This document shows, in pieces, positions 1 to 57,694 of a stretch of 64,000 bases of DNA; position 1 is the stretch's first letter; every line of letters starts with the position of its first letter. This DNA is from a virus. Its lineage: Duplodnaviria > Caudoviricetes. The notes below the pieces were generated by a model. That model did not search any database. It was not told the origin of the DNA and saw nothing but the letters and a program-made list of their open reading frames with translations. The stretch spans positions 8,447 to 72,446 of IMG/VR virus record IMGVR_UViG_3300005805_009498, one strand, 5' to 3'. Position numbers and translations under genes: made by a program.

Positions 1-3000
1 TTGTACAGGTGGATTTGTCGTAAAGTTAAAAGATCCTACGCCCTGGTTTCTTGACAATATTTCAAACACTGCGTTCCATCCAGTGAATGTATCGTTTGCT
101 CCGGCCCCAAAGTTTATAGAGGATATAGTAGAATTAACGAAGTCATGTAGTTTAAACCCTATCTCGGAATTTATGTCCTGCAAAGGTGACAATAAAGTAT
201 TTACGTATTTTGTTCCTTTTATGCTGTAGATGTAAGTTCTTGTGTTTCCTTCCGAGTTTGTCTTGTTTGTTACGGTTGATACCTCTTTTTCTATTACAGA
301 CTTTGTGAGTTTGTCTATGTACTTGCTGTATCCTGCAAGGAACGTATTCTTGTTCTGCGAAAGATCTGTCTTTCCGCGTTCGTAAAATTCATCTAGCGCA
401 ATTTCTGCCTTAAATGCAGAAAGACCATCGATGGTTCTGGTGTATTTTGTAGTTATAGGTGAAAGCTTTTGTTCACCTTCATATGTTGCCTGTATATTTG
501 CCTCGGGACCGCTTCTTTTTGCAAGCTTTGCGAATCCTTCATTACCAAACTCTATGACAGCAAACTTTATTTTAGTAGTTGCTCCTGTGCTTGAACCGTT
601 GTTGTTGTTATTTCCCCCTTTGGTGTTCTCTTTTTCTACAAACCATTTTGAATCGTATGCCTTTTGCCCTGCTTGGAAAGTTCTAGGCTGTATTTTCTTC
701 AATTCAGTATACTTTCCTCCGTTTGTTCTTGGATCGTTTACGAACTCCTTGTTAAACAGAGCGTTCTTTTGTTCTGTTGTCAATCCTGCATAGGAGAACG
801 AACGTATTTCGTATCTTCCTACAAAGGTATCGGTGTTAATGTAATAGACGTTATAGTTTACTGTTGTGGTGGTTTGGGTATTTGTGTTTGTATTTGTTCC
901 TGTTCCGAGGTTTCCACTTCCTCCTGGGCCAAATTGATCCTGCCACATTGTTCCACCGTCTATTATGGAATCCACATTGAAGTTGTTATTTTTTCCTCCT
1001 CCTTGTGGGCCTTGGTTTCCTGTTCCTTGGTTTCCTGTTCCTTGGTTTCCTGTTCCTTGGTTTCCTGTTCCCTGATTTAATCTTGAAAGTCTCTCTATTT
1101 CTTCTCTTAAACTCTTTATAATGTCACTAAGTTCTTTTACCGATGATGACTGATTGTTTTTTGCTTCTTCCGCTAGTCTTTTTAGCTCTTCTTCCCTTTG
1201 TTTCAAAAGAGCATTTCTACGATCTAACTCGGTTTTTTGATCTTCCAACGATTCTACCTGATCTTCCAGGGTTTGTTGTTGTCCAAGCAGAGCAGTTTCA
1301 AGAGCCTTTAACGTTGATTCCTTGGAATTTAGTTGAGCCTCAAAAACGTTAAGACTGTTGCTTCTGGCATCAAGCGCAGACTCCCTATCCTTTACGGCAT
1401 TAAGTCTCGCTATGAATGAGTTGTTTCGTAGTTCTTCGATTTTGTCAAGAACTACCTGATAATTCTCTATTGCCTCAACGTTTCCTTTGTAGACCACCGT
1501 TTCTTCCCCTGTCAATCCATCCGGTATCACCTCTATTATCTCTAGATATTTCTTTTCTAGGGTGTATGGTTTAAGGTTGTTGTACACGGTTATAAGATCG
1601 TCCTTGGACTTCTGTGCCCAATCAGAAAATGGTATTGTAACCTCTTTTCCTCTAAGATCGCTTGCTATTTCTAGGCTTACCCTTGCTCTTACTATGTTCT
1701 TGTTTCTTACCGTTATGTAAAACTTACCAGGAAGATCCGATATCATTCTGGTAGCATCATTCGCAGGAACCCTAAATATGAGTTTTCCTGACTTTGTATC
1801 ATTTATTTGATTTGTTATGGCCGTTTCGTTGTTAGGGAAAGGCTGATACAGAGAATACCTGTACTTGTTTCCTGATCCGGTTTCAAAGATTATGTTTATC
1901 TCTTGTGCGCTAGAAAGATCAAGGGATTCTATGGAGTCCGGGGTAACCCTAAACACGTTAAACTTAAAATAATTATCGAACGGACTAACCAATACCACAG
2001 CTTCTGTTTGCCCGAACACTATGTCCCATTCGAACAGGTCTTCAGGTATAAACTGCCCAGACTTATCTATGAATAGTTTTCCCGTAGATACAGAGACATT
2101 ATTGTTTTCATAAAACGAAGGAGAAACTATCCTTTGAACTCTTATGTCCTGTTTTGGAACAGGAAGATTAAAAACGGGTCCTTCGGAAATTTTGTTGTAC
2201 ACCCTAAAAGGTATGACGTCTTCTCTAACATTTAACTTTAATCCGTTTCTTCCGAATTTTTTTGGTTCAAAAGAAGTCACTGACGCGGTACGAATTATCT
2301 GGCTTCCGTCTGTTTCGTTTGTAAGCCTCATCGTATAATCGATAGAAAAAGAAAACGCGGTATCGGAATTCTTCAGAATGGGTTTAAAAAGAGAAGGCTG
2401 ATCGAAATCATCGGTCTGTAAAATTACGTTACTGCTGCTGTACAGTTGAGAAAATCCAACCTGTTCCGAAACGGTGAGTTCGTGTATTACAACGTACTTT
2501 CCTCTGGTTTCATTTAGTATGGCTATGTAGTCCGATATGAAATTTTCGTCCCACGTAGGATAGTATTCAAAATAATCTCCGTTCTGTTTTATTACTGCAG
2601 CTAAATTTGAGAACTGATCCTGAGGTTCTATAGAAACATAAGAAGGTACCCCGGTTGTTAGATAATCGTAACCGTTTAGAGAGTTTACCTGTTCAATTTC
2701 GTAGAAATCAAACTTTATTAAGCCTTCTGTCAGGAATCCGTCGTTATCCGAAGTAAAGTAGTAAGCTATAGCGTCCTGTTTATCAGTTGCTGCGTTGTAT
2801 TCAGTTATCATGTCTGATAACGAAGGTATCAAAAACTCGACGTACTTATCGTAGTTAGCTCCGTTTATCACCATCGGTCTGGTGTTAAAAACTATGTAAT
2901 CGTCACCGTTAACATATGTCTGTAGAGCAACTCTTGTGTTCTTTATCCTGTTTGTCTCTGGGTAGGAAACGTCCAAAACAAATCCACTAGAGGAAGTAAA

Positions 3001-3354: not shown

Positions 3355-4100
3355 CAGAAGTTAAATAAATTTATGCCGACATAAACGCCGACGCTTGGAA
3401 AAAATCCCGAACCCCCTGGAGTTATACCGTATCCTATTCCTCCACCCAACATAAGTGAGAATGGTCCTGAATTTCCCTTTACGAAAGATTTATCTGGGTC
3501 AATTACTGCACCCTCAAGATCGAAGTTTATTCCGGGAAAATCGGTTCTGGCAAATATTGAATAGCTTCCCTTCTCTTCTTTTATTCCTGTGTATATCTTT
3601 ACGTTCATCGAAAGATCGGAAAGTGTCGTTGATTTTGATCTCAACGAAATTTTGTTGTTAGCGATGGAAACCTCTGCGGGTAGAGATCCCTTGAACGATA
3701 TGGTATTTGAGCTATCGTAATTCCTATCGTATTTAAAGGAAACTGAGAAAGTGGAATCGTTTATTTTTTCCACGTCGTTATTTACAACAATGGTATCAAA
3801 AACAAACTTTGTTACTATCTTTGTTATGACCCTTACGTTTCCCTTTTGATTTTTCAGTTCCTGTGAAAGGTCGTCGTTTAGTTTCTTTAGGATTTCAATA
3901 TCGCCCATCAGAATCTTTCTCTCGTACTGTTCTTTTCCAAGCAGGTTCTTTACCTTTCTTGTTGTATCGATTAGCGCCTCATTGTTTTGATTGGCAACCT
4001 TTAGTTGCAACGCATTGGAACTGCACTGTTTTGCTGTAAACAAAAGAGCCAGAACCAATATGGCGATTGAAGCTATGTATGTTATTCTTTCTGTGTTCAT
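3354..4100 (-). CDS. Membrane-anchored coiled-coil protein with C-terminal amphipathic beta-strands; spanin-like candidate
   Basis: N-terminal hydrophobic helix ending in QC, a coiled coil, then a C-terminal GIGYGITPG...SVGVYVGINLFNF ending in Phe. Confidence 0.4.
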   Translation of the reverse strand: MNTERITYIASIAILVLALLFTAKQCSSNALQLKVANQNNEALIDTTRKVKNLLGKEQYERKILMGDIEILKKLNDDLSQELKNQKGNVRVITKIVTKFVFDTIVVNNDVEKINDSTFSVSFKYDRNYDSSNTISFKGSLPAEVSIANNKISLRSKSTTLSDLSMNVKIYTGIKEEKGSYSIFARTDFPGINFDLEGAVIDPDKSFVKGNSGPFSLMLGGGIGYGITPGGSGFFPSVGVYVGINLFNF

Positions 4101-4336
4101 TTTTCTGTAAGTACTGAGTTTATATCAAAAAGTATGTTACGTTCTCCGTATTTTTTTGTATAGTCGTCTATGAACCTTTTTTCTTTTTGCTTTATTTTTT
4201 CAAGCTGCAGTAGAGTTTCTTCGTTTTTCTTTTCTAACTTTTGTATCGAAGATAGGGTTCTTTCCAGCTTATCATTAATGACATTGTATTGCTTTATTAT
4301 CGATAACGCCTCTTCCCTTTCCTTGTTTGTCATCAC
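4097..4336 (-). CDS. Small coiled-coil hypothetical protein
   Basis: 79 aa, E/K-rich heptads, overlaps the genes on both sides by 4 nt. Confidence 0.7.
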   Translation of the reverse strand: MMTNKEREEALSIIKQYNVINDKLERTLSSIQKLEKKNEETLLQLEKIKQKEKRFIDDYTKKYGERNILFDINSVLTEK

Positions 4337-6867
4337 TTTACTCCTATAAGTTCAAAGTTAACCTGAGAATATACTATATTTATTCCTGCGTTCACTACTT
4401 GTAAGTTTACCATTGGATTTCCTGCCACTCCCATGGAGTTAAAGACAATATCGTCATACTGCGGGGAAGGATCTACACCTATTTGTTTTTCCATAATAAA
4501 TGCAACCTCTGCAATCTCGTTGAATCTAAGAGGAACTATCTCCGATGATTCTACCTTTATAATGTGATTACACAGTACGCTGTTAGTAGATACAGAAGCC
4601 GCACTGATATATTGTTTATTTCCCAAACTATCTATGACAAAATAATCGTTATCTATTCCAGTGTTTGGTGCAACATTTCCAACTGCGTTTACTGAAAGCG
4701 TTCCCTCATTGAATTGTGCTGGCGCAAATTCCCTTGTGTGAGTCGAAAGATACGAATATATCACAGGGGAAGAATAAGTGACATCTGTGGTATTGTAGTA
4801 GGATGAATAAAAGGGTTGTGAAGAGGTAGGTACAGTTTTTGGTAACGGTTGCGCCCAAGGAATGGTTGAATCGTACACCATTATTGCAGTGTGCACCGGA
4901 ATTGGCGATCCAAGACCAACAGTCGTCGGAGAAACATTTGGTCCAGCAAGCTTAACGTTCACGTATCCGTAAGCAACAACAGTAACACGATAAAACGCAA
5001 TCTTACCGTCGCTGCTTGTATTTGCTTTTACCTTATTTAAAACCGACGCGCGCAGTCTAGGAGTTATAGGATGTACGTATTGTCTTCCTGTTACGGTATC
5101 TGCTACGCTTATGCTATAATCTACACTTATTCCAGGTACTGTTATGTCGCTTACTGCGGGAGCAGGAGACTTAAAGTCAGGGAAATCGTATTCAAGCTTT
5201 GCGGTTTGGGTAATAGGATCTACCCCGATTTTATTTTGAACCAAAGGGACGTACATCACTTCCTTTTGATACTTATACGAGTCCGTGGCCCTTGACTGAG
5301 GCCACCCCCATGATGAGATTCTAGAATCTATTAAATTACTTCCCTTAGCCGGATTAATATCGGGTCTCCATGCCGAAGCCAGAATGTTTTTAAAGGGTTC
5401 ATAATTACCTTCGTTCTGCGCAACCGTTAAGTAGTCTGCCCCCCATTTCATCTGATTGTTTGCCCCAAGTCTGTTTGGAAACGCAAGTTGGTTTGATGGG
5501 TGTAACCAGTTCGATGAATACGTTATCCTGGATCCTAGGAAATTCATCAGCGTCGGGTACGATGCAAATACTGATGGATTAATGTCTAGATTTAATGTGT
5601 TTCCGCTTCCGCTTGCTATAAATTTATCGGTAAGATTTATATCAAGCGCGGTGTTTGGATTTGAGCTAAACTGTAAATTTGCTCCCCCGCCATTAACGTT
5701 AATATCTGTAAATGCGTATTGTAACCCTGTTCCTCCAGGAGGAGATGCGTTTATTACCAATGTATTTCCGGTACTTCCGGAAAAACTCACACCGGTTCCT
5801 GCTTGAAATATTACCGATGTCTGCGTGAAAGCGGTAGTTGGGCTAGACAACAACAACGTTGATGTGTCGACTAAAGTCGACATGCTAATTTGCGGGTCGA
5901 TAACCACCGGATTTTGTTGTAATGGAATCCAGTTTGAATCATAGAAATATTCAAAATGATCTACGTTCCACCTAAACGATCCGTTTCCGTAATCGGAGGA
6001 CGATTCGTTATTTGAAACAAATCTTACGACCCCTCCGATTATACCGGAGGTCTTTGTGTCAGAACTCGAAAACGAGCTTGTTCCTAATAGAAAGTATGGG
6101 CCATTAAACCCTGAATTGTCTGCAGGTTTGTTTATTACTGTACGGTCTGCCGAGAGATTAAATAATTGTTTATGTGTTGCATAATCGTCCCTCAGACCAA
6201 ATATGGATAGGGTTTCCTGTTCGTTTCCGTCCCAATCAGAGCTGATTACATATCCAGATTCTTCTGTCCATGTTGGATCAGGAAGATCCTCTCTTGCCGG
6301 TTGGTTTGCGAGTCGTATGTTGTTTCCTTCGCTAAAGACCTTAAGCTTATAGTTTCCTCCAACGTTTCCGTCCAATCCTGAGGCAGCTTCTGCGACATCT
6401 GTAGTGAGAAGCAGATTGTTTTGTGCTAAAAGGTTTAGTATGGTGTTACTGGTCCTCTTAAAAAACGGATCATCGGTTGTATCACCACCACCAGCTCCGG
6501 TCGTCGATCTAGTTAGTGTTCCAACCTTACTCCAAACACCAGCATTTCCAACATATTGATATATGTCAGAAGTAGACAAATCTATGTATAGATCCGAATT
6601 TGCAGGTGTAGGTAGTATATTACTTGCAGGACCCCCCGTTCCGGTATACCACCTGCTGCCTCTATCCCCCTTCACACCTCTTGCTCCTGGAAGACCTGGA
6701 GGCCCTGGAGGACCCGATATTCCAGGAAGACCGGTTAAACCCCTCTTTCCTGCTGGGCCTCCTCCTGCAAATCCTAGCTGTTCAAAGTTGTAGTTAATCT
6801 TATCAAATGCCTGTGCCAGACCATCGGAGGACTGTACAAGAAGCAGATTTATTGGGGTAGTTGACAT
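4333..6867 (-). CDS. Collagen-like tail fibre protein
   Basis: N-terminal fibre-anchor motif DGLAQAFDKINYNFEQL, then a G-X-Y run (GKRGLTGLPGISGPPGPPGLPGARGVKGDRG), then WYTGTGGP...DLYID typical of phage fibres. Confidence 0.75.
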   Translation of the reverse strand: MSTTPINLLLVQSSDGLAQAFDKINYNFEQLGFAGGGPAGKRGLTGLPGISGPPGPPGLPGARGVKGDRGSRWYTGTGGPASNILPTPANSDLYIDLSTSDIYQYVGNAGVWSKVGTLTRSTTGAGGGDTTDDPFFKRTSNTILNLLAQNNLLLTTDVAEAASGLDGNVGGNYKLKVFSEGNNIRLANQPAREDLPDPTWTEESGYVISSDWDGNEQETLSIFGLRDDYATHKQLFNLSADRTVINKPADNSGFNGPYFLLGTSSFSSSDTKTSGIIGGVVRFVSNNESSSDYGNGSFRWNVDHFEYFYDSNWIPLQQNPVVIDPQISMSTLVDTSTLLLSSPTTAFTQTSVIFQAGTGVSFSGSTGNTLVINASPPGGTGLQYAFTDINVNGGGANLQFSSNPNTALDINLTDKFIASGSGNTLNLDINPSVFASYPTLMNFLGSRITYSSNWLHPSNQLAFPNRLGANNQMKWGADYLTVAQNEGNYEPFKNILASAWRPDINPAKGSNLIDSRISSWGWPQSRATDSYKYQKEVMYVPLVQNKIGVDPITQTAKLEYDFPDFKSPAPAVSDITVPGISVDYSISVADTVTGRQYVHPITPRLRASVLNKVKANTSSDGKIAFYRVTVVAYGYVNVKLAGPNVSPTTVGLGSPIPVHTAIMVYDSTIPWAQPLPKTVPTSSQPFYSSYYNTTDVTYSSPVIYSYLSTHTREFAPAQFNEGTLSVNAVGNVAPNTGIDNDYFVIDSLGNKQYISAASVSTNSVLCNHIIKVESSEIVPLRFNEIAEVAFIMEKQIGVDPSPQYDDIVFNSMGVAGNPMVNLQVVNAGINIVYSQVNFELIGVK

Positions 6868-6870
6868 ATG

Positions 6871-9800
6871 TTATCTTCGTTTTATATTGAATGCTAGTAA
6901 TATCTGTTTTGTTCCATCTACCGGGATATCGAAATCGAACGACCTGGACTCCTGTATTCCTATGCTATCAACCATTTTGAATCCCTCGGATTCAGGAGAG
7001 GCTTCGATAGAAACAACCTCTGTCCGTGAAAAAGGTCTTTCGTAGACTTCGATGCTTTCCACGCTATAACGATACAACAGATTTCTGTTTATATATTCCT
7101 TAGATATTTCATATGGGCTCAAAGTCGTATTTAATTCTTCCCATATAGAAGAAAAGAAAGAAAATACACCAGAGTTAAACAGGTGATCGGATATAACACG
7201 ATCGAAATCGATGTGTATCTTTAGTCCTGTTCCTATCGAGGAATAGAAAACGGCGCTTTCACTTGAGTTTGAAGGAACAGAAAAATCTAAACATGAATAT
7301 GTGTTGGTTCTAAAAAATGTAGGAACCGACATGCTCTTTGAAGCAAGAAAGAATTTGTGATCGACCGGGTCTTTTATTCCCTCTATTGGGACATCTACGA
7401 ATTCATCTTCTGCCATTACGTAAAAATCGGAGCCCCACACATCGGTTATAGGGGAAAAATTTCTCCTACCTATCGCATAAGGGAGTTTCAATAACTTTCC
7501 GTTCATGTTTATGGTTCCAAAATTCACTCCTTTTTCAGAGACACGCTTGTACCAAATGCTCAAAGGATTTACTTGTAAAACATATGTGTTGTATCCCTTA
7601 AATGAATTTAATACCTGTTTTGTGATAGAAACGTCTTCGGAAGCCGCAAAGGAAACAATGTTTTTATAGGATGGTTCAAACTCTCCATCCAACCTAAATA
7701 TGTTGGTGTTGCTTTCCCTTTCTCTTATATTCACGTTTCCAAACTCGTCTAGGTTGGCTTCTTTTATTTTTGTTGGCCTTATCACTGATGGGTTTAAATA
7801 GGAAATCTTTATTTTGCTTTTTGCCTCATCGGTGTTTAAGTTCACCAAGATGTCATCAAAATCCATAAGATTCATCCTAGAAATTATCGAGTTCGCTGTT
7901 ATGGAGTTAAGGGTATCCAAATATATCGGCCAATCTCCTATTGCGTATACCTTGGCTTTCTGGATGAATGTTGTTTTTCCTCCTATCGATATTACGTTGT
8001 TCTCAGAATAGTTTACGTATGTCACCGCTAAAGTTCTATCGACGTCGGATATCACTCCAAAAAAGTTATCCGAGTATATTCCATCTATAAATAGTCTTTC
8101 TTTTTGTAATTCTGGATCAAAAACCCCTCTGACCCTTGATCTTGGTATTACTATATCGATTTTCAGTTCCTGACCAGATCCAGAGAACACCGTTCCTGAT
8201 ACGATGTAATCGACGTTTGGAAAATACTTAACACCGAATATTTCTATGTCCTTCTGTCTATTATCGTATTTTATGATCTTGACGTTTTTGTATTGATATT
8301 GATTGTATTCGTTCTGGTCATCTCCTTCAGAAGGTGTATTTATTAAGACCGTCTCATCTTCATTGTAAGCCCTGTTTACCTTTGAAAACTCCAGAATATC
8401 GGATCCATACACCATCATTGGGCCGTATATCTTTCCGCTTTCTGTGTTTTCATAGTTGAACCTTAGATCGTACAACTGTTGAAGCGATATGGACCCATCG
8501 ATAGAATAGGAATCAACGTTAATTTGAACAAATAGTGTTAAAGTTTTCCAAACTTCGTTGTATATGAGGCTTATCTTTGAAGGTTTATCTAACTCGGGTT
8601 CTACCTGTAATATTGCGGCAAACTTTGAACCGGATATGTTTATTTTAGAATCGAAAACCAGAGGGATGCCCTTAAACGTGGTTGTATATCCTGTGTTTCC
8701 TTGCTCTATGGTGGTCCACAAAAATCTTTTTTCTCTCTGAGCACCGCCAGAAAACACTTCTTCGCCATATCCAACGGTGAGATAGTCTGTAAAATAGTCG
8801 TATGTAGTGGACTTAAGGTCATCGATACTTATCCTTTTTCCGATGTACTCGTAGGTTTTTTCTACCTCTTGCAAAGGATAAAATTTTGGCCACCCGGATA
8901 TGAGATACCAATCCAACGAAAACGCTGTTTTTGAGATCCCAGATTCCGTTGCGTTAACAAACATATCGTATGGTAATAGATTAGGATCAACGTTTATAAG
9001 ATATGGAGCCATATCGACATTAACCGTATTTCTTCTCTTCCATCTTCCCGATGTATTTTCTAGCTTATTATTTACAGACTGTGTTGAGGTTGCAAAATTT
9101 GTTATTGAAGTTTCTTCCGTAATCCCGTTAAAACCCAATTCTATCGGATCTGATTCAGGCTGAGCAGATTGATCATCCGATTCTATGACAACACTGTAGG
9201 TTCCTTGCTCAAGATTCGTTGTGTATCTGTAGTCTAGATGGTCGTCATCAATCGGAAGAATTGTTGTATAAACATAGGTGCCAGAATTGGAAGTCTTGTC
9301 AATGTTTTGTTGTCCAAGTTTATTAAATGCAAAAGAAACAAGTCGTTTTATTTCAGAAAATACCCTCAACCTTTTTTCATCTGCCGGTAATTGGTACATG
9401 AAAGAAATCAACGCGTTCATAACGGCCTGTAGGTCAAACCCTCCTCCAGCAGATCCAACTGGAGGTTTTCCATAGACTATGTCAACCGACCACATTTCAG
9501 AAGCGTTATAGTCATAATTTAAAAAGTAGTCGCTTATATAGAAGTCTGTGGTGGTTGTAACAGTCGGATAGGATATTTGATAATCGACCCATTGCTTATC
9601 CTTGTTTAGATATTGGATCTTGAACTGATTAGGCGATTTTAAAATGTTCCATACAAAAGGAAACTGGGAATTTTCCACGACATTTGTACCCCTTTGTTTC
9701 CTCTTGTTCTGATCAAGAAAATCTGGTTCCTTTTGTGGGTCCCAATTTCTCCACTCGGTGTAAATGTTTTCGGCAATGTTTACCGATAGCTTTAGATTTT

Positions 9801-44258: not shown

Positions 44259-44261
44259 AAA

Positions 44262-44291
44262 AAATAAAGGGCGCTTTTGCGCCCTTTATTT
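44262..44291. terminator. Rho-independent terminator ending the 49553-44286 operon
   Basis: 13-bp stem aaataaagggcgc-tttt-gcgccctttattt, with a T-run on the minus strand. Confidence 0.9.
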
Positions 44292-44645
44292 TATCTTTAT
44301 CACTTGATCGACGTGTTTGTGTAGCCTCTTCAAAGAATCGTTGTCCAACAAAAAGGATTTCTTTATCTCTATTTCAAGAGACAACAGCTCCTTTTTTATG
44401 TTTTTCACCAGTTCAACCGATATTGAGGGGTTGATATACTGAATGCTACTTTTCTTTTTCTTTTTGGCAAACTCAAATTCTTCCTTTAATATTAGATTCA
44501 TAAGGTAAACAGAAGTGTTTTCCATCTGTCCGTCTGAATTCTTTTTCAATCTTAGAAGTATTTTGTTTACATCTATGACATACGGTTTGGATCCCGTAGC
44601 GTACTTCGGTGCGTTGGATTTCTCCTTAGAAAAAATCAGGTTCAT
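44286..44645 (-). CDS. Hypothetical protein
   Basis: 119 aa, 4-nt overlap with the upstream gene, ends in the terminator. Confidence 0.7.
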   Translation of the reverse strand: MNLIFSKEKSNAPKYATGSKPYVIDVNKILLRLKKNSDGQMENTSVYLMNLILKEEFEFAKKKKKSSIQYINPSISVELVKNIKKELLSLEIEIKKSFLLDNDSLKRLHKHVDQVIKIK

Positions 44646-45648: not shown

Positions 45649-45952
45649 CGAAGAGCGTTATTATATTTTCTTGATAAAACTTTTTTCTATCTTCCTGCAT
45701 TGTATCTATGGTGTTGGTTATCATTTCCTTAAGAAATTCTAGATTTTCTTTAAAGAATATGTTTACCCCTCTTTTAGAGACATCGTCGGAATTTGATGTG
45801 AAGTTTTTTGGAATCTCGTTTATTCTCCAAAACAATAGTGGACGACAATCCACAAATTTTATGTTTACCTCTTTCCATCCGTTTGGCTTTACGGTTATCG
45901 TTTCACAAAGATCCCATTCTATGTCGTTTTCAATCTTGTAGTCTATCTTCAT
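45641..45952 (-). CDS. Hypothetical protein
   Basis: 103 aa, overlaps both neighbours. Confidence 0.7.
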   Translation of the reverse strand: MKIDYKIENDIEWDLCETITVKPNGWKEVNIKFVDCRPLLFWRINEIPKNFTSNSDDVSKRGVNIFFKENLEFLKEMITNTIDTMQEDRKKFYQENIITLFDE

Positions 45953-46647
45953 GCGTTAATTCCCCCTATTACCCTTGGCCAATAAACATCTGGGGATATT
46001 CCCATCAACTGTATCACCAATTCCAATTCCTTATCGGCGTTAAGACCATTAGGAAGATTCCAATGATGGCTTTCTACCGGTTTCACGTGAGAGGCTTTAA
46101 CATCGTCTATTATAGCAAGTCTTTCGTAATTAAGTTCCCTTGCCCATAGATAATCTTGCGCCCACCCTGAATATGTTATGGTGAATGTTCCAAGAACACG
46201 TCTTAGCGCCGATGTCTTAAACAACGGACACATTATCTCAACATAGTTTGTGTATCTAATGAACTTGGTTTGATCGTTCAATACTAATGGAAAACTATAG
46301 TAACTGTCATGGGTTAACGATGGCTGACATATATTTAGATTATAATCCTGCGCAATCGTAAACAATCTAGCTATCTCGGTTGGATCAAGATGAACATCGT
46401 AATCAGGCATCCATATCCAATCATACTGATCGAGTATGTCGTACTTTTCGATGAACCTCTTGTATATGTGATGTTTGTACCCTTTGTCTTTCACATAATA
46501 CTTTGCTGTTCCATACACCTGAGGATCGTCGTTCCATTCGTCAGGGTTGAAATTTATAAGAGCAAGATCAAATCCGCATAGTTTAAAGTCTTTGTCGTTA
46601 TAAAATCCCCCCTCGGCGCTTGTAGCTATGACGAGGTTTCTTTTCAT
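45949..46647 (-). CDS. DUF707-family GT-A glycosyltransferase-like protein
   Basis: YDWIWMPDYD (DxD), ICQPSL, YVEIMCPLF and SGWAQDYLW match the DUF707 pattern. Confidence 0.8.
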   Translation of the reverse strand: MKRNLVIATSAEGGFYNDKDFKLCGFDLALINFNPDEWNDDPQVYGTAKYYVKDKGYKHHIYKRFIEKYDILDQYDWIWMPDYDVHLDPTEIARLFTIAQDYNLNICQPSLTHDSYYSFPLVLNDQTKFIRYTNYVEIMCPLFKTSALRRVLGTFTITYSGWAQDYLWARELNYERLAIIDDVKASHVKPVESHHWNLPNGLNADKELELVIQLMGISPDVYWPRVIGGINA

Positions 46648-46883
46648 TGCTGTGTTTGTTCTTCTTGCTGCTGTGTAGCGTTTACCGATTCTACAGAGCG
46701 ATCAGGTCTAAAAAACACTATTGCATCATAAATGATCTTGGCTTCTTGAATTGAATATGCGCCAAGTCTTGTTGCGTGTTCTGCCGCGTTTACGAGAACG
46801 TTTATCGCCTTAGCTGGATCGTCTATCACATACGCAGGTGTTTGTGGACGTTCTGGTTGCGGTGTTTGTTCGGTTGTTTCCAT
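46644..46883 (-). CDS. Small hypothetical protein
   Basis: 79 aa, TAATG and ATGA coupling; GAYSIQEAKIIYDAI helix. Confidence 0.7.
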   Translation of the reverse strand: METTEQTPQPERPQTPAYVIDDPAKAINVLVNAAEHATRLGAYSIQEAKIIYDAIVFFRPDRSVESVNATQQQEEQTQQ

Positions 46884-47731
46884 TATTCCTCTACGAAAAA
46901 TTTGTTAAATATGTCGATGTAATCTTGTGTTTTAAGAACCGAAAAATCTTCTATAGATTCCATGTGTTCGTTAAAACGCTTTGCTTGTATTGATATTCCA
47001 GTATTTGGATCAAAGATCGGCTTAGTTATCTTTAGCTCTATATCATTATTTGAATTTGGATTTTCCTTTCTCAATTCTTGTACCAGAGAGAAATGTCTCT
47101 CGTAATAATGAGTATTATCAGAGCAATGATAGTAGGTTCCAACTTCGAGTTCGTTGTATTTTTCCTTTAGAAGAAGGTACATCGATTGATAAACAACAGA
47201 AAAGAACGGCGCATCGTATTGAAGACCATAGAATATGTCGTTTGATCTCATCTGTACCTTCATGTTTAGCTTATTATCTCTTATCCAAAAGTTCATATAC
47301 ATTGTACAAACGAAATCCTTAACACCTTGACGTTGATACGCCGGTGTATTAAAAACCATTATGGCTTGACGCGTAGATTTGTCGTTAATAAGGGCATCAT
47401 AGGCCCACTTGAACTGGCTTTTGTTTTGTCTTGAATTTATGATGTATCCGTAATTGGAATTAACACGGTTAAACTCATCTACCAGACTTTTCCAAAAGCT
47501 AGAAAATTCGTTGATTCTATTTATGTTTGTATCTTCACACAGATACCACCATAATTCTCCTATGAAATACTTCCAATTAAAAGCCTTGCTATCGAAGTTC
47601 ATGAGAGGGTATAACGGATCGAACTCAAGGGTGGTAAGATACTCTTCTACGACCTTTAATCCTCTTGGTGAATCTTCGGTTTCCATCCTTGAAAGGAGAG
47701 ACAGAACTTCGCTGTTTAGGGTTTTTTTCAT
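46883..47731 (-). CDS. Thymidylate-synthase-superfamily enzyme of the cytosine-specific type (dCMP hydroxymethylase-like, T4 gp42-like)
   Basis: E59, catalytic C142 (DFVCT), MRSND165, and D173 at the position of E. coli Asn177 / T4 gp42 Asp179; HYY210. Confidence 0.85.
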   Translation of the reverse strand: MKKTLNSEVLSLLSRMETEDSPRGLKVVEEYLTTLEFDPLYPLMNFDSKAFNWKYFIGELWWYLCEDTNINRINEFSSFWKSLVDEFNRVNSNYGYIINSRQNKSQFKWAYDALINDKSTRQAIMVFNTPAYQRQGVKDFVCTMYMNFWIRDNKLNMKVQMRSNDIFYGLQYDAPFFSVVYQSMYLLLKEKYNELEVGTYYHCSDNTHYYERHFSLVQELRKENPNSNNDIELKITKPIFDPNTGISIQAKRFNEHMESIEDFSVLKTQDYIDIFNKFFVEE

Positions 47732-47769: not shown

Positions 47770-48822
47770 CTAAAATAAAGCGATGATTTTTGTTTTTCTC
47801 GTTGGTTTTCCTGTTTCAAAATCATACATGTATGAGTGTCTGGATAGATGTACGGATCCAGGTTTTTCCATACACTGTTCCGCGTATTTTTCAGGGTCCA
47901 TCACATACCATTCATCTGGCCACCTAATGACCATATAATCATGGTCGTAAGAGAAATCGCTAATAAGTCTATTGAATTCCTTTACCGCATCTGATCTTTG
48001 TTGTCTTGTTCCGAAAAAAGGAGATCCTTTATACCATCCGGTTTTTGGGATCTTCCTTTCTTCGTGTTCTATGGGAAGAAGAGAAACCAACCAGACATTT
48101 TCTATTCCTCTATTGTCTTTAAGATCCTTTGCAAACTCTGCATATCTTTTAGCAAGATCAAGCAACGACGCCATTGGATCTTCCTGTCTAAAAATATGAT
48201 GCCTAACGTCTATGTTACCCATGTAAAGGATCACGTTTTTGGTTCCTTCAGGGAAATTAAATTGATCCTTTTTGTTTAAAAACCCGTGTAAAGTTTGGCC
48301 ATCGTTCCTGCTAATGTTTGCCCCTGGTTCATAGATAGAGACAGCATGACTGTCCCCATAGATGAAGGTTTTACTGTTAAGAACAACATCAATTCGAGGA
48401 ATGGACTCTGATATGGACTTATATCGTGAGGCGTCAAGTTCAACCCACTCTTCGCATGCGCCCTTTGCTCTTGAATTTATGAATTCACCGATATCAGGCA
48501 TATCGTGATTCAATATGAATATTTTTCCTTTAAATGATTCTAGCCTTTTTACCCTGTCTGCTACTTCCTTTGTTGCTCCTCCAAATAAGTTGAAAGTTCC
48601 TTGAAACTCCATAGGAAGAAGTATCAACCAAACATCGTAATTATGAATGTTATCGTCCTTAGTAAGGACATCGCATTCTATTTCAAGGCTGTTTAATTGA
48701 CAGCGTATTAGATATGGCCAGGAGGATTTGTGGGATTCTTTTTTTCTGCTATATGACGTAACAACGTCGTCTATGGCAATCCTTTTTCCCCTTAGATCAT
48801 CAAGAGCATCATATATGTTCAT
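47770..48822 (-). CDS. Fusion of a T4 beta-glucosyltransferase-like N-terminal domain and an SGNH hydrolase/acyltransferase domain
   Basis: N-half KRIAI...YLI...CDVLTK...NYDVWLIL...FNLFGG...FKGKIFILNHD parallels T4 BGT (KIAII...YLF...VDIISLK...DYDRLIVV...INFFGG...YKSKIYYLFTD). C-half has GDSH, G175, GNID and SVH blocks. Confidence 0.65.
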   Translation of the reverse strand: MNIYDALDDLRGKRIAIDDVVTSYSRKKESHKSSWPYLIRCQLNSLEIECDVLTKDDNIHNYDVWLILLPMEFQGTFNLFGGATKEVADRVKRLESFKGKIFILNHDMPDIGEFINSRAKGACEEWVELDASRYKSISESIPRIDVVLNSKTFIYGDSHAVSIYEPGANISRNDGQTLHGFLNKKDQFNFPEGTKNVILYMGNIDVRHHIFRQEDPMASLLDLAKRYAEFAKDLKDNRGIENVWLVSLLPIEHEERKIPKTGWYKGSPFFGTRQQRSDAVKEFNRLISDFSYDHDYMVIRWPDEWYVMDPEKYAEQCMEKPGSVHLSRHSYMYDFETGKPTRKTKIIALF

Positions 48823-48824
48823 CT

Positions 48825-49106
48825 TTATTTCTTCTCGTTATGATAGTTCTCTAAACCTTGGATGTATGCGACAGCATCTAAAAGATTATCCCTCTTATGC
48901 TGATAGCTCTCTCTGGAAAATTTAAGGGCTATGAGGGCCTTAAACATGTGATCCGCGCTAAGGTTCATCCCTGTCATACCGTTAAATATCATTGCGGCCC
49001 TTTCCATACCTTCGCTAAATGGGCCATATTGACGATCGGCTTCTTCCGATCGATTGTTAACTATTTCTTCTGCTTGTGTTAATATGCTCATAGATTTATT
49101 ATACAT
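48825..49106 (-). CDS. DUF6378-like all-helical protein (dNTP diphosphohydrolase-like)
   Basis: RQYGPFSE...LIALKFSRE...RDNLLDAVAYI pattern. Confidence 0.7.
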   Translation of the reverse strand: MYNKSMSILTQAEEIVNNRSEEADRQYGPFSEGMERAAMIFNGMTGMNLSADHMFKALIALKFSRESYQHKRDNLLDAVAYIQGLENYHNEKK

Positions 49107-49121
49107 TGTTAGATAGAATTG

Positions 49122-49553
49122 TTATTTATCATAGCCGTTTTCGTTTATCCATCGCAAATACTTTTTTAGTTCCTTGTCCTCTACCGTTATGGAATATACG
49201 CCCTGTTGAAATATCTTCCATGAATCCGAGGCGTACTTTCCCACTCCAGGAAGGGATTCAACGGAATTTCCATCCCAATTTAACCATTTTTCAGAGAATT
49301 TTTTCCACATCTTTGCCCTTCTATTGTAAAATCCTAGAGGCCTTATTATGGATATGATTTCCTCATCCGTTGCAGAACAAAGAGATTTTGCATCAGGAAA
49401 ACGAGAGAAGAACTGGTTTCTTACCTTATCCACTTGTTTGTACCCGGTCTGATTAAGCATCATACAAACCAGGAGCATCTTCCATGGGTCGTCTTGATAG
49501 ATTTCTTGACGATATTTAAAGGGACTGGTAGGGGGCTTTGTCGTTTTTTTCAT
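49122..49553 (-). CDS. MBD4-like HhH-GPD mismatch DNA glycosylase (143 aa; real start at 49553)
   Basis: DPWKMLLVCMMLNQT...RPLGFYNRRAK...LPGVGKYASDSWKIF...EDKELKKY closely follows the MBD4 catalytic domain; the catalytic Asp is present. Confidence 0.9.
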   Translation of the reverse strand: MKKTTKPPTSPFKYRQEIYQDDPWKMLLVCMMLNQTGYKQVDKVRNQFFSRFPDAKSLCSATDEEIISIIRPLGFYNRRAKMWKKFSEKWLNWDGNSVESLPGVGKYASDSWKIFQQGVYSITVEDKELKKYLRWINENGYDK

Positions 49554-55299: not shown

Positions 55300-55941
55300 T
55301 TATATGTGAACTGCTAAAAGTTCAGGAACTTCAATCCATTCGAACATTTTTCCAAGCCTATCGTAGGTGTAACCGTCATTATAATAACCTTGTTCTCCCG
55401 AGAATGTGTCCCAACCGCATGCGATCATAGCTTCCCTTCTAACAACCACCTGTTGCGTATCGATGTTTTGAAACACCGGTGGTATACCATTTATGACCTG
55501 TGGAGCAGAACCTAAGTGCTGAGGAAGGGGCCCTAGATGTAGAATCTTACATATTGAAAAAGCTTTATCGGGATTAGATTCCAACGCCTCTACGTTTCTT
55601 TCCACAAAGTGGGAAAACAGGACGTTATCATCGTCCATGTGAACCAAATACTTTATACTTAAATCGGATTCTATGAAGTTTCTAAGAACGTATTCTCTAA
55701 CTCCACCGCCGTAGGAGTTGGTGTTTTCTCCTGTACACACATAGATGATATACGGATCCTGAAGAGATTCAACGTATTGCTTTACGTGTTCTTCTTCCGG
55801 TCCGTCCGAACATATTATGTGTAACATCGATCCGGCATATGATTGGGATCTGACAGAACGAACCCCACGATCTATTATGTTTATGTCCCTCTTGTATGTC
55901 GGGGTTATTATTGCAACCTTTGGTAGCTGTGGATTTATCAT
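55300..55941 (-). CDS. Glycosyltransferase family 2 (GT-A)
   Basis: KVAIITPTYKR...IICSDG...YLVHMDDDN. Confidence 0.88.
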   Translation of the reverse strand: MINPQLPKVAIITPTYKRDINIIDRGVRSVRSQSYAGSMLHIICSDGPEEEHVKQYVESLQDPYIIYVCTGENTNSYGGGVREYVLRNFIESDLSIKYLVHMDDDNVLFSHFVERNVEALESNPDKAFSICKILHLGPLPQHLGSAPQVINGIPPVFQNIDTQQVVVRREAMIACGWDTFSGEQGYYNDGYTYDRLGKMFEWIEVPELLAVHI

Positions 55942-56462
55942 TGTATGTTGTATCCTTCTATTATTTCTAATATCTGTTCTTCTGTGTATTCGTCTGTATC
56001 AAGGATTATATCATAGTCTTTAAAGTTCGAGAAAGTTTTTTTATCCCGAGATATTCTTTTTAGTATCTGCAGAACGGAATCCCCTCTCTCTGTGGATCTT
56101 TTTATCCTTGTTACCAATGGAGCGGTAAGCTGTATTACCAGGGTTGATTCTGAAAGTTCGGAGGTTCTTAACTTAGATATGGCCTTTGGTGTCAATATGA
56201 AAATTTGACGTGCTTCCAGGTCTCTCATGGAAGTTCCATAATAGTCCCCAAAAACATCATCATATTCAAAGAAAAAATCCTGTTGTATAAGTTCTTCGAA
56301 CCTTTCCCTAGAAACAAAGTGATAATCATGACCCTCTATTTCGTTTTCTCTCATTGGACGGGTCGTGTAAGAAACCGAAGGATTAAGGTTTCTTTGTATC
56401 AATGACTGTTTTATCGTTGTTTTTCCCGAACAGGAGGGACCGCAAAGAACTATTCTTTTCAT
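55938..56462 (-). CDS. gmk: Guanylate kinase-like NMP kinase
   Basis: GPSCSGKTT P-loop, SYTTRPMRENEIEGHDYHFVS and YYGTS. Confidence 0.92.
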   Translation of the reverse strand: MKRIVLCGPSCSGKTTIKQSLIQRNLNPSVSYTTRPMRENEIEGHDYHFVSRERFEELIQQDFFFEYDDVFGDYYGTSMRDLEARQIFILTPKAISKLRTSELSESTLVIQLTAPLVTRIKRSTERGDSVLQILKRISRDKKTFSNFKDYDIILDTDEYTEEQILEIIEGYNIQ

Positions 56463-57694
56463 ATCACAAACCCCACTTTACTTTTCTTTTCCTTTACATT
56501 ATGATATAATACGGTTCTTTGGTTTTTCAACGAATATATGTCGGCCAAAGACATTTCACGATCAGCTTCCTTTTCTATTTTTAGATGCTTTAGCAGAAGA
56601 TTGGATTCTTCTATGCTAAGATTGGTGAATTCCTTCCTTGCAAGCAGTCTTTCTGGTCGAAGCAAAGCGGAATCGATGAACTCAAGGTTTGTGTTGAACG
56701 TTAGTATTATTTGTGTTCCTAATATGTCGTTTAGTATTCCATCTGTTATATTCAAGAGGTTAGATATTCCAAGACTTCTAACACCGGAATCTCGACTTTC
56801 GACAAGTGTTTCGGCATCCTCTAGCAATATTATCGTCGGATTGTTTTGCTCTAAAATCCAATCGGACAAGAACGTTATGAAATTTGGGTCCAAGAAAGAA
56901 TCTATGAAATTCGAAGGAACATAGAGAACGTTCTTCTTGCTCTTGACTAAATCCTTTAGTAACATTCTTATGTAATAGGTTTTTCCTGTTCCAGGTTCTC
57001 CGTGAAATATTATGAGTCCTTTACTATCGGTCTTTAATAATGACGATAGTTTCTTATGAAACTCAGAGAATTTTTCTCCATAATGAAGATCAAGTTCCTG
57101 GGCAGAAAGATTTTTTGCACCCTTTCCAAGATTGTATTCCTTTACATACATCCCCTCTGGAGTAGATCCAATTATTCCTATTATCGGTGAGTCTTCGTCT
57201 ATGAATTGACTTGCTCGTTGATAACAGGAAAGCAACATATCTTTAGAAAGTTGTTCGCACTGTTCTCTTAGCTCTTCTACGAACGATATCTCACTATTGC
57301 TGATCTCCAATATTTTTCTTTGAACATCGTCTATTTTTTGCGAATATTCCTTCGTACTAAACTGTACAAGAATATCACAGTTCTCGTTCTGATAAGTTTC
57401 GGTCCTTATGCGATCTATGAGATATTTTTCGGATGCATCTTTAACTAGGTTTTCCCTAAATTCTTCGTTATTCACGGTGTCATCGAAAGCTGTGCTGCAA
57501 TATGAGGATGCGCATTTAAACCCTTTTTCTGCTAAAAAAGATCTTACTTTATCGAGATTTAAAGTACATGTGTTTAAAATAGAGGACGTTGGTTTTTCAT
57601 GGATCCTTGACAAATAGCTCGTAGAATTAAATTGATATGCCGACGTTCTATTTCCATGCAAACCGTTGTATGGTCCTTCAGCTAAGCTTAACAT
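56459..57694 (-). CDS. AAA+ ATPase (classical AAA clade)
   Basis: Walker A GEPGTGKT, Walker B ILLEDAE, NLLNITDG, and second region of homology DSALLRPERL. Confidence 0.9.
   Translation of the reverse strand: MLSLAEGPYNGLHGNRTSAYQFNSTSYLSRIHEKPTSSILNTCTLNLDKVRSFLAEKGFKCASSYCSTAFDDTVNNEEFRENLVKDASEKYLIDRIRTETYQNENCDILVQFSTKEYSQKIDDVQRKILEISNSEISFVEELREQCEQLSKDMLLSCYQRASQFIDEDSPIIGIIGSTPEGMYVKEYNLGKGAKNLSAQELDLHYGEKFSEFHKKLSSLLKTDSKGLIIFHGEPGTGKTYYIRMLLKDLVKSKKNVLYVPSNFIDSFLDPNFITFLSDWILEQNNPTIILLEDAETLVESRDSGVRSLGISNLLNITDGILNDILGTQIILTFNTNLEFIDSALLRPERLLARKEFTNLSIEESNLLLKHLKIEKEADREMSLADIYSLKNQRTVLYHNVKEKKSKVGFVI

Follow-up and report, generated by a model that had tools for sequence, protein, structure and literature searches.

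Does the thymidylate synthase homologue encoded at positions 46883-47731 (minus strand) of an uncultured phage sequence make thymidylate (dTMP), as its family name would suggest, or a modified form of deoxycytidylate (dCMP)? The sequence, which we refer to as the window, is a stretch of 64,000 nucleotides (positions 8,447 to 72,446 of the IMG/VR record IMGVR_UViG_3300005805_009498, Caudoviricetes). A sequence-only reading of the window had picked out an Asp in the 282-aa product of this gene at the position that distinguishes cytosine from uracil substrates, had proposed 5-hydroxymethyl-, 5-methyl- or 5-hydroxy-dCMP as the product, and had suspected that automated tools would call the gene a thymidylate synthase. 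We examined these proposals, and we consider it quite probable from sequence comparison that the gene encodes a dCMP hydroxymethylase (deoxycytidylate 5-hydroxymethyltransferase) of the T4 gp42 type, making 5-hydroxymethyl-dCMP. The enzyme class is a textbook one, and the Asn/Asp rule has previously been applied to metagenomic phages; here we predict a gp42-type enzyme in a lineage of unstudied, uncultured phages.

The 282-aa product matches the Pfam family Thymidylat_synt (PF00303; 79.6 bits, residues 47-241) as well as PHROG families named "thymidylate synthase". Against the NCBIfam thymidylate synthase equivalogs it reached at most 57 bits, where the cut-off is 327 (the full set of cut-offs runs from 108 to 427). 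Because it fails all of the ThyA equivalogs by far, and because it carries the cytosine-specifying Asp, we do not think that it is a dTMP synthase. When the Protein Data Bank (PDB) was searched with HMMER, the top structure was the T4 dCMP hydroxymethylase (1b49, E 2.6e-20), the best ThyA followed at E 3.6e-13, and MilA was a weak match (E 6e-7). Metagenomic homologues are abundant, with 3842 at E <= 1e-5 and 128 clusters at E <= 1e-30. The suspicion of misannotation is borne out by the labels these proteins carry: where the homologues are named, the JGI product label is "thymidylate synthase", and this is the RefSeq product name even for T4 gp42.

The residues on which the proposal was based are where the sequence-only reading had placed them. 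By script, the MRSND motif maps to residues 161-165, and Asp173 follows Asp165 at a distance of eight residues; Asp165 is encoded by GAC (47237-47239) and Asp173 by GAT (47213-47215), both on the minus strand. The HMMER alignment with the T4 dCMP hydroxymethylase structures runs column for column from MRSND to Asp173 against the T4 stretch that ends in Asp179, and the deposited D179N mutants (6l18 and 6a9a) have Asn in the Asp173 column. A MAFFT alignment of 157 rows agrees, with E. coli ThyA Asn177, T4 gp42 Asp179 and Asp173 of our protein (the query) in a single column. Both motif Asp residues are present in 120 of the 120 closest database homologues, and in the wider alignment Asp173 is matched by Asp in each of the 145 family rows, so that this residue cannot be put down to chance. 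The column of Asp165, which corresponds to E. coli Asp169 and T4 Asp171, holds Asp in 144 of the 145 rows, Cys in one and Asn in none.

Published work on this family gives these columns a diagnostic value. A change of Asn177 to Asp (E. coli numbering) sets the use of dCMP, and a change of Leu143 to Asp or Glu accompanies hydroxymethyl rather than methyl products (PMC13326640). Among contigs of native phage metagenomes, those with modified cytosine were best told apart from unmodified ones by positions 177 and 147, and Asp177 went with modified cytosine (PMC8670742). A third change, Asp169 to Asn, is the mark of the flavin-dependent 5-hydroxy-dCMP synthases, of which nine diverse D169N enzymes have been validated (PMC13326640). 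For the T4 dCMP hydroxymethylase (T4dCH), a ternary complex and mutagenesis identified Asp145, three residues before the catalytic Cys148, as the residue that activates water, with Ser94-x-Tyr96 completing the hydroxymethylation signature; the mutants D145N, Y96F, S94N, D179N and C148S were each inactive (PMC6400193).

We compared reference enzymes, taken from annotated records, at E. coli positions 143, 147, 169 and 177. These positions read L/H/D/N in E. coli ThyA and RB69 td, D/N/D/N in the dUMP (deoxyuridylate) hydroxymethylases of SPO1, Vi01 and phiW-14, N/P/D/D in the enzyme of the 5-methylcytosine phage Xp12, E/T/N/D in the RB69 5-hydroxy-dCMP synthase, and D/T/D/D in T4 gp42. Residue pattern and known product thus agree for all of the references, and the query, which is also D/T/D/D, has the pattern of T4 gp42.

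The remainder of the hydroxymethylation signature is likewise present. The segment Asp139-Phe-Val-Cys142 (47306-47317, minus strand, as are the other codons given here) contains the predicted catalytic Cys, paired with T4 Cys148 and E. coli Cys146, and the predicted water-activating Asp, paired with T4 Asp145; because D145N abolishes hydroxymethylation by T4dCH (PMC6400193), we take Asp139 as the mark of a hydroxymethylase. Ser92-Asn-Tyr94 (47450-47458) aligns with the T4 Ser94-x-Tyr96 that holds the water of hydroxymethylation (PMC6400193), and Glu59 (47555-47557) with T4 Glu60 and E. coli Glu58, which serve in the opening of methylene-tetrahydrofolate. Glu59, Ser92-x-Tyr94, Asp139, Cys142 and Asp173 are invariant among the 145 family rows. 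Over 14 active-site columns the query is identical to T4 gp42 except for a Leu instead of Val at E. coli position 83. We also compared 26 active-site and cofactor residues of T4dCH among T4 gp42, the query and the 145 rows, and the signature positions (in T4 numbering Glu60, Trp82, Ser94, Tyr96, Arg123, Asp145, Cys148, Thr149, Arg168, Ser169, Asp171, Asp179, His216 and Tyr218) were all conserved in the query and the family. The sole notable change among the 26 falls at T4 Arg124 (E. coli Arg127), the second of two phosphate-binding arginines contributed by the partner subunit, for which the query has Gln122 (47366-47368).

To place the protein among its relatives, we built a tree with IQ-TREE (LG+G4, 1000 ultrafast bootstraps and the SH-like approximate likelihood ratio test, SH-aLRT). 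Of its 54 rows, 12 were references, and the others were the query, 9 of its close homologues and every fourth of the 50%-identity cluster representatives that measure 240-360 aa; the remaining representatives, fragments and fusions were omitted, and MilA is also absent. The query joins T4 gp42: the smallest clade containing both has 38 rows and support of 95/95, and also includes the enzymes of Xp15, HHU4 and RsoM2USA. The clade excludes ThyA and td, all three dUMP hydroxymethylases, the Xp12 enzyme, the 5-hydroxy enzyme of RB69 and a further protein with D/T/D/D, that of the Enterococcus phage vipetofem. A sister relationship of the query lineage with Xp12 or with ThyA/td was rejected by approximately unbiased (AU) tests (p 0.027 and p 0.023, respectively). 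Taken together, the published diagnostic residues and the tree support the proposal of a dCMP-modifying enzyme and narrow its three candidate products to 5-hydroxymethyl-dCMP as the predicted one.

The genomic record and its relatives bear on where dTMP would come from. The source record is 72,446 bases long and has a CheckV completeness of 24%, from which we estimate a phage genome of about 300 kb. The window also encodes a major head protein, a prohead protease and an endolysin, and the part of the record outside the window (locus L107, G000:C1) encodes an RCC1-repeat beta-propeller protein (14-1147, plus strand; 263 bits), a UvsW-like helicase (3675-5225, minus strand) and a gp32-like single-strand DNA-binding protein (6965-7951, minus strand). 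We searched this record (G000) together with five long IMG/VR relatives (G001-G005). ThyX is encoded in both G001 (74% identity, 134 kb) and G002 (53% identity, 261 kb, 88% complete), and G003 and G004 (about 50% identity) each encode a canonical ThyA of about 300 bits alongside the thymidylate synthase homologue of about 70 bits. A dCMP deaminase is present in all five relatives. The window's own 72-kb record showed no such separate supply of dTMP by dCMP deaminase and a true thymidylate synthase. Because the relatives carry a separate ThyX or ThyA, we argue that the Asp-type enzyme is not their source of dTMP. The arrangement is that of T4, in which gp42 stands beside td and cd.

Starting from the observed fold, signature residues and phylogenetic placement, and from the separate thymidylate synthases of the relatives, we infer the rest with T4dCH as the model: the substrate, the product, its entry into DNA and each later step. 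Cys142 would attack C6 of dCMP, and Asp173 would recognize and protonate the cytosine ring. Glu59 would open 5,10-methylene-tetrahydrofolate, whose one-carbon unit would be joined to C5. Once tetrahydrofolate has departed, a water activated by Asp139 and placed with the help of Ser92 and Tyr94 would add to the exocyclic methylene, replacing the hydride transfer of thymidylate synthase and yielding 5-hydroxymethyl-dCMP. A phage kinase (a candidate lies at 55938-56462) might then phosphorylate this product for incorporation by the polymerase, and the base on the DNA may receive further decoration, for which an SGNH-domain protein, a DUF707 protein and a GT2 protein described below are candidates. 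Production of dTMP would proceed apart, via dCMP deaminase and ThyX, as in the closest long relatives.

Several findings weigh against this interpretation. The product call is read from residues and homology. One of the two phosphate-binding arginines that T4 supplies from the partner subunit is replaced by Gln in the query, as it is in 98 of the 145 family rows. In the tree, the methylase class is represented by the single reference Xp12, and the RB69 5-hydroxy enzyme sits on a branch of length 2.5, so that the tree alone cannot place the 5-hydroxy class. In addition, the lineage of G000-G002 leaves unexplained how cytosine could be replaced completely. A T4 gp56-like dCTPase is present in the more distant G003 and G004, but queries with the T4 gp56 protein, phrog_173, MazG (PF03819) and PRA-PH (PF01503) found none in G000, G001 or G002; the gp1 protein query found no T4 gp1-type kinase in these three records, and G002 is without the guanylate-kinase-like gene that we consider below as a substitute. 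The phrog_139 kinase profile gave matches at the level of the P-loop only, and it also matched 14 of 14 control genomes. Since all of these records are incomplete (24-88%), we regard the missing dCTPase and kinase as a gap rather than a refutation.

This gap would also fit the idea that the T4-type chemistry is right and its substrate or destination is not: that the enzyme acts on CMP, as MilA does, or that its product is not incorporated into DNA in bulk. MilA has both Asp residues (PMC13326640) and gave a weak match in the PDB search. The match to T4dCH is far stronger, however, the absent genes carry little weight in records this incomplete, and the gene sits in a phage that has gp32-like and UvsW-like genes for replication, in an operon that includes a DNA glycosylase. 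We therefore give this idea only a small chance.

Slimmer still, in our estimate, are the prospects of a dCMP methyltransferase of the Xanthomonas phage XP12 type, which would make 5-methyl-dCMP by hydride transfer from tetrahydrofolate for a DNA containing 5-methylcytosine (5mC). Asp173 would suit any member of the family that uses dCMP, the N177D mutant of ThyA does yield 5-methyl-dCMP (PMC8670742), and the MBD4-like glycosylase of the operon would be at home in a 5mC genome too, where deamination gives T:G. What tells against a methyltransferase is the pair Asp139 and Thr143, where Xp12 has Asn and Pro; Asp at the first of these positions marks hydroxymethylases, as the D145N mutant of T4dCH indicates (PMC6400193). 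The tree concurs, within the limits of one methylase reference, in leaving Xp12 outside the 95/95 clade and in rejecting its union with the query.

A flavin-dependent 5-hydroxy-dCMP synthase of the RB69 gp48 or DLP3 gp80 type, feeding O-glycosylated 5-hydroxycytosine, appears very improbable, and because of the long RB69 branch it is the residue rule rather than the tree that excludes it. Such enzymes resemble the query in having Asp in place of N177 and an acidic residue in place of L143 (PMC13326640), and glycosyltransferase-like genes do lie nearby. The diagnostic change of Asp169 to Asn is nevertheless absent, since Asp165 is kept and no family row has Asn there; the RB69 enzyme moreover differs at E. 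coli positions 80, 83 and 209, whereas at 80 and 209 the query has the T4 gp42 residue, and at 83 it is unlike either enzyme. Least credible of all is a divergent ordinary thymidylate synthase, or a dUMP hydroxymethylase, because the Pfam match and the names given by automated pipelines are outweighed by the replacement of Asn177, Leu143 and His147 together, by scores of at most 57 bits against equivalog cut-offs of 108-427, by the separate ThyX or canonical ThyA of the relatives, by the rejection of a clade with ThyA, and, for the dUMP hydroxymethylases, by their retention of Asn177 and their place outside the clade.

A gp42-type hydroxymethylase can also be considered in the light of the genes around it. 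The gene belongs to a minus-strand unit that spans from a promoter-like site at its head (49587-49560; a consensus match only, with 10 of 12 positions) to a strong, terminator-like hairpin at its end (44261-44292; 14 bp, GC-rich, flanked by T and A runs). Terminator-like hairpins past the capsid gene and a short plus-strand gene pair set this unit apart from the capsid operon. A word resembling a T4 late promoter, TATAAAT, stands 12 nt ahead of the start codon; it occurs seven times per strand of the window, and we dropped it as a signal. The gene order is MBD4-like glycosylase, DUF6378 protein, 350-aa protein, thymidylate synthase homologue, 79-aa open reading frame (ORF), DUF707 protein and four small ORFs, and it is kept in the related loci L003-L007.

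The first gene of the operon (49122-49553, minus strand) encodes a stand-alone HhH-GPD DNA glycosylase (PF00730) that matches the glycosylase domain of mouse MBD4 (1ngn) at E 1.1e-23; a longer ORF with a TTG start, reaching 49724, probably does not represent the real start. Mammalian MBD4 removes the deamination products of 5-substituted cytosines, and an enzyme of this type thus fits a genome with such cytosines. Next comes the DUF6378 protein (48825-49106, minus strand; 93 aa, PF19905). For its fold, a PDB profile search returned only chance matches to repeat proteins, the AlphaFold model was weak, with a predicted local distance difference test (pLDDT) score of 66, and Foldseek returned nothing at E <= 0.001; the protein may be considered a possible all-alpha pyrophosphatase, or dCTPase of a non-T4 kind.

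Directly upstream of the thymidylate synthase homologue is the gene for a 350-aa protein (47770-48822, minus strand; phrog_13881) that has an N-terminal alpha/beta part and a C-terminal SGNH esterase/acyltransferase domain, with invariant GDSH, GNID and SVH motifs. A PDB profile search with this protein was uninformative. Its AlphaFold model (pLDDT 78) matched SGNH esterases and carbohydrate acetyl-esterases by Foldseek and VIA (Z 12), and hhalign against T4 beta-glucosyltransferase gave a weak local match at an N[LF]FGG motif (7.8% probability). The pair of DUF6378 and 350-aa genes recurs in a second phage lineage (L061:2063-3440 and L071:2062-3439), about 6.5 kb from the thymidylate synthase homologue, and DUF6378 alone is found 1-2.5 kb from it in five further loci.

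Downstream, the 79-aa ORF (46644-46883, minus strand) overlaps the thymidylate synthase homologue by a single base, where stop codon and ATG meet in TAATG; it is conserved in L003 and L007 and has no family match in Pfam, PHROG or NCBIfam. It is followed by the gene for a glycosyltransferase-like DUF707 protein of 232 aa (45949-46647, minus strand; PF05212, E 3.5e-6), conserved in L003, L004 and L007. The Atlas neighbours of this protein are DUF707 and "Glycosyltransferase" clusters, and we consider it a candidate for later base modification.

A second cluster lies 8 kb off (55300-57694, minus strand), directly upstream of the endolysin, protease and capsid genes. It consists of genes for an AAA ATPase (411 aa), a guanylate-kinase-like protein and a GT2 protein, with a 4-nt overlap at each junction. 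The guanylate-kinase-like protein (55938-56462, minus strand; 174 aa) is a P-loop kinase with 95 bits to PF00625, a match to TIGR03263 that is below its cut-off (E 1.4e-29) and matches to guanylate kinases in the PDB (E 4e-18); the gene is also found in G001 and G005, and its product is a candidate for phosphorylating the modified deoxynucleoside monophosphate (dNMP). The GT2-family glycosyltransferase (55300-55941, minus strand; 213 aa) is supported by PF00535 (E 7.7e-7) and NCBIfam glycosyltransferase matches, and its gene overlaps the kinase gene by 4 nt. In G003, about 500 nt from the thymidylate synthase homologue of that record (151263-151925), an open frame of 199 aa (G003:C1:152422-152559) resembles a P-loop kinase and contains a TAA in frame; it may represent a dNMP kinase, perhaps a defective one.

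The MBD4-like glycosylase, the glycosyltransferase-like genes and the SGNH-domain gene would all fit a genome with 5-substituted cytosine, and further modification of its 5-hydroxymethylcytosine (5hmC) is plausible but unproven. One can go a step further and suppose, tentatively and with more doubt than conviction, that the hydroxymethylase opens an undescribed pathway of cytosine hypermodification. The alpha/beta and SGNH protein might acylate or otherwise esterify 5hmC in DNA, and the DUF707 or GT2 proteins could perhaps glycosylate it. The MBD4-like glycosylase would clear bases of the 5-hydroxymethyluracil type left by deamination, and a dCTPase unlike that of T4, one candidate being the conserved DUF6378 partner, would keep cytosine out.

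Other phages keep different company around their homologues. In the majority lineage (62 of 76 related loci, within L008-L082), the genes flanking the thymidylate synthase homologue encode a double-AAA ATPase resembling ClpB/ClpC, a ClpP protease and a LOG/SLOG-family protein, joined in 28 loci by a DUF2827 protein (examples are L034:7949-9952, L023:11105-11782, L035:6767-7432 and L041:15982-17178). In the Xanthomonas phage Xp15 (L101, AY986977; 321-4257), a "putative carbamoyl transferase", an Asp-type thymidylate synthase homologue and a dCMP deaminase lie within 4 kb, the homologue being two genes from the former and adjoining the latter. MetaGPA linked such an arrangement to 5-carbamoyloxymethylcytosine, which starts from 5hmC (PMC8670742), and Xp15 is therefore a cultured phage whose gene set matches the one described from metagenomes.

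If our prediction holds, a lineage of uncultured phages with genomes of about 260-300 kb, by completeness estimates, would carry DNA based on 5hmC. Modified-cytosine DNA is a well-known anti-restriction strategy, and its presence here would bear on the evasion of restriction and CRISPR, on biases in sequencing and cloning, and on the hunt for DNA-modifying enzymes. A likely annotation error would also be corrected in the homologues currently called thymidylate synthase. We see the main value of the gene, however, as an anchor that makes the MBD4-like glycosylase, the SGNH-domain protein, DUF6378 and DUF707 interpretable and testable.

Among known systems, the closest is T4 gp42 itself (EC 2.1.2.8; PDB 1B49, 1B5D, 1B5E and 6A9A/6A9B), with which the query shares the fold, the clade, the active-site set (Glu, Ser-x-Tyr, Asp-x-x-Cys-Thr, Arg-Ser-Asn-Asp, the Asp eight residues on, and His-x-Tyr) and, through its relatives, the genomic logic of a separate thymidylate synthase and dCMP deaminase. 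It differs in having only about 30% identity over 175 residues, a length of 282 rather than 246 aa with some 60 extra C-terminal residues, and Gln122 for Arg124. Its gene, moreover, has no beta-glucosyltransferase gene beside it but shares an operon of a jumbo phage with genes for the MBD4-like glycosylase, the SGNH-domain protein and DUF707, and no gp56 or gp1 homologue was found in its lineage (G000-G002). The Asp177 homologues of MetaGPA, some of which stand beside 5hmC carbamoyltransferases as in Xp15, share Asp177, a residue other than His at position 147 and the co-occurrence of dCMP deaminase (PMC8670742), and the Xp15 enzyme belongs to the same clade with an identical D/T/D/D signature. 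Unlike those arrangements, the query locus is without a carbamoyltransferase and has the SGNH-domain protein, DUF6378, DUF707 and the MBD4-like glycosylase as neighbours. RB69 gp48 and DLP3 gp80 have the thymidylate synthase fold, Asp at N177, an acidic residue at the third position ahead of the Cys and nearby genes for glycosyltransferases, but they have Asn at E. coli Asp169 and use flavin and O2, whereas the query keeps Asp165 (PMC13326640). E. coli ThyA and phage td share the fold, the catalytic Cys, Glu58, Arg166-Ser167, Tyr94 and His207-x-Tyr209, and depart from the query at Asn177, Leu143, His147 and Trp83, for which it has Asp, Asp, Thr and Leu. The dUMP hydroxymethylases of SPO1 (gp29), ViI and phiW-14, finally, combine Asn177 with Asp143, where the query has Asp173 in the place of that Asn.

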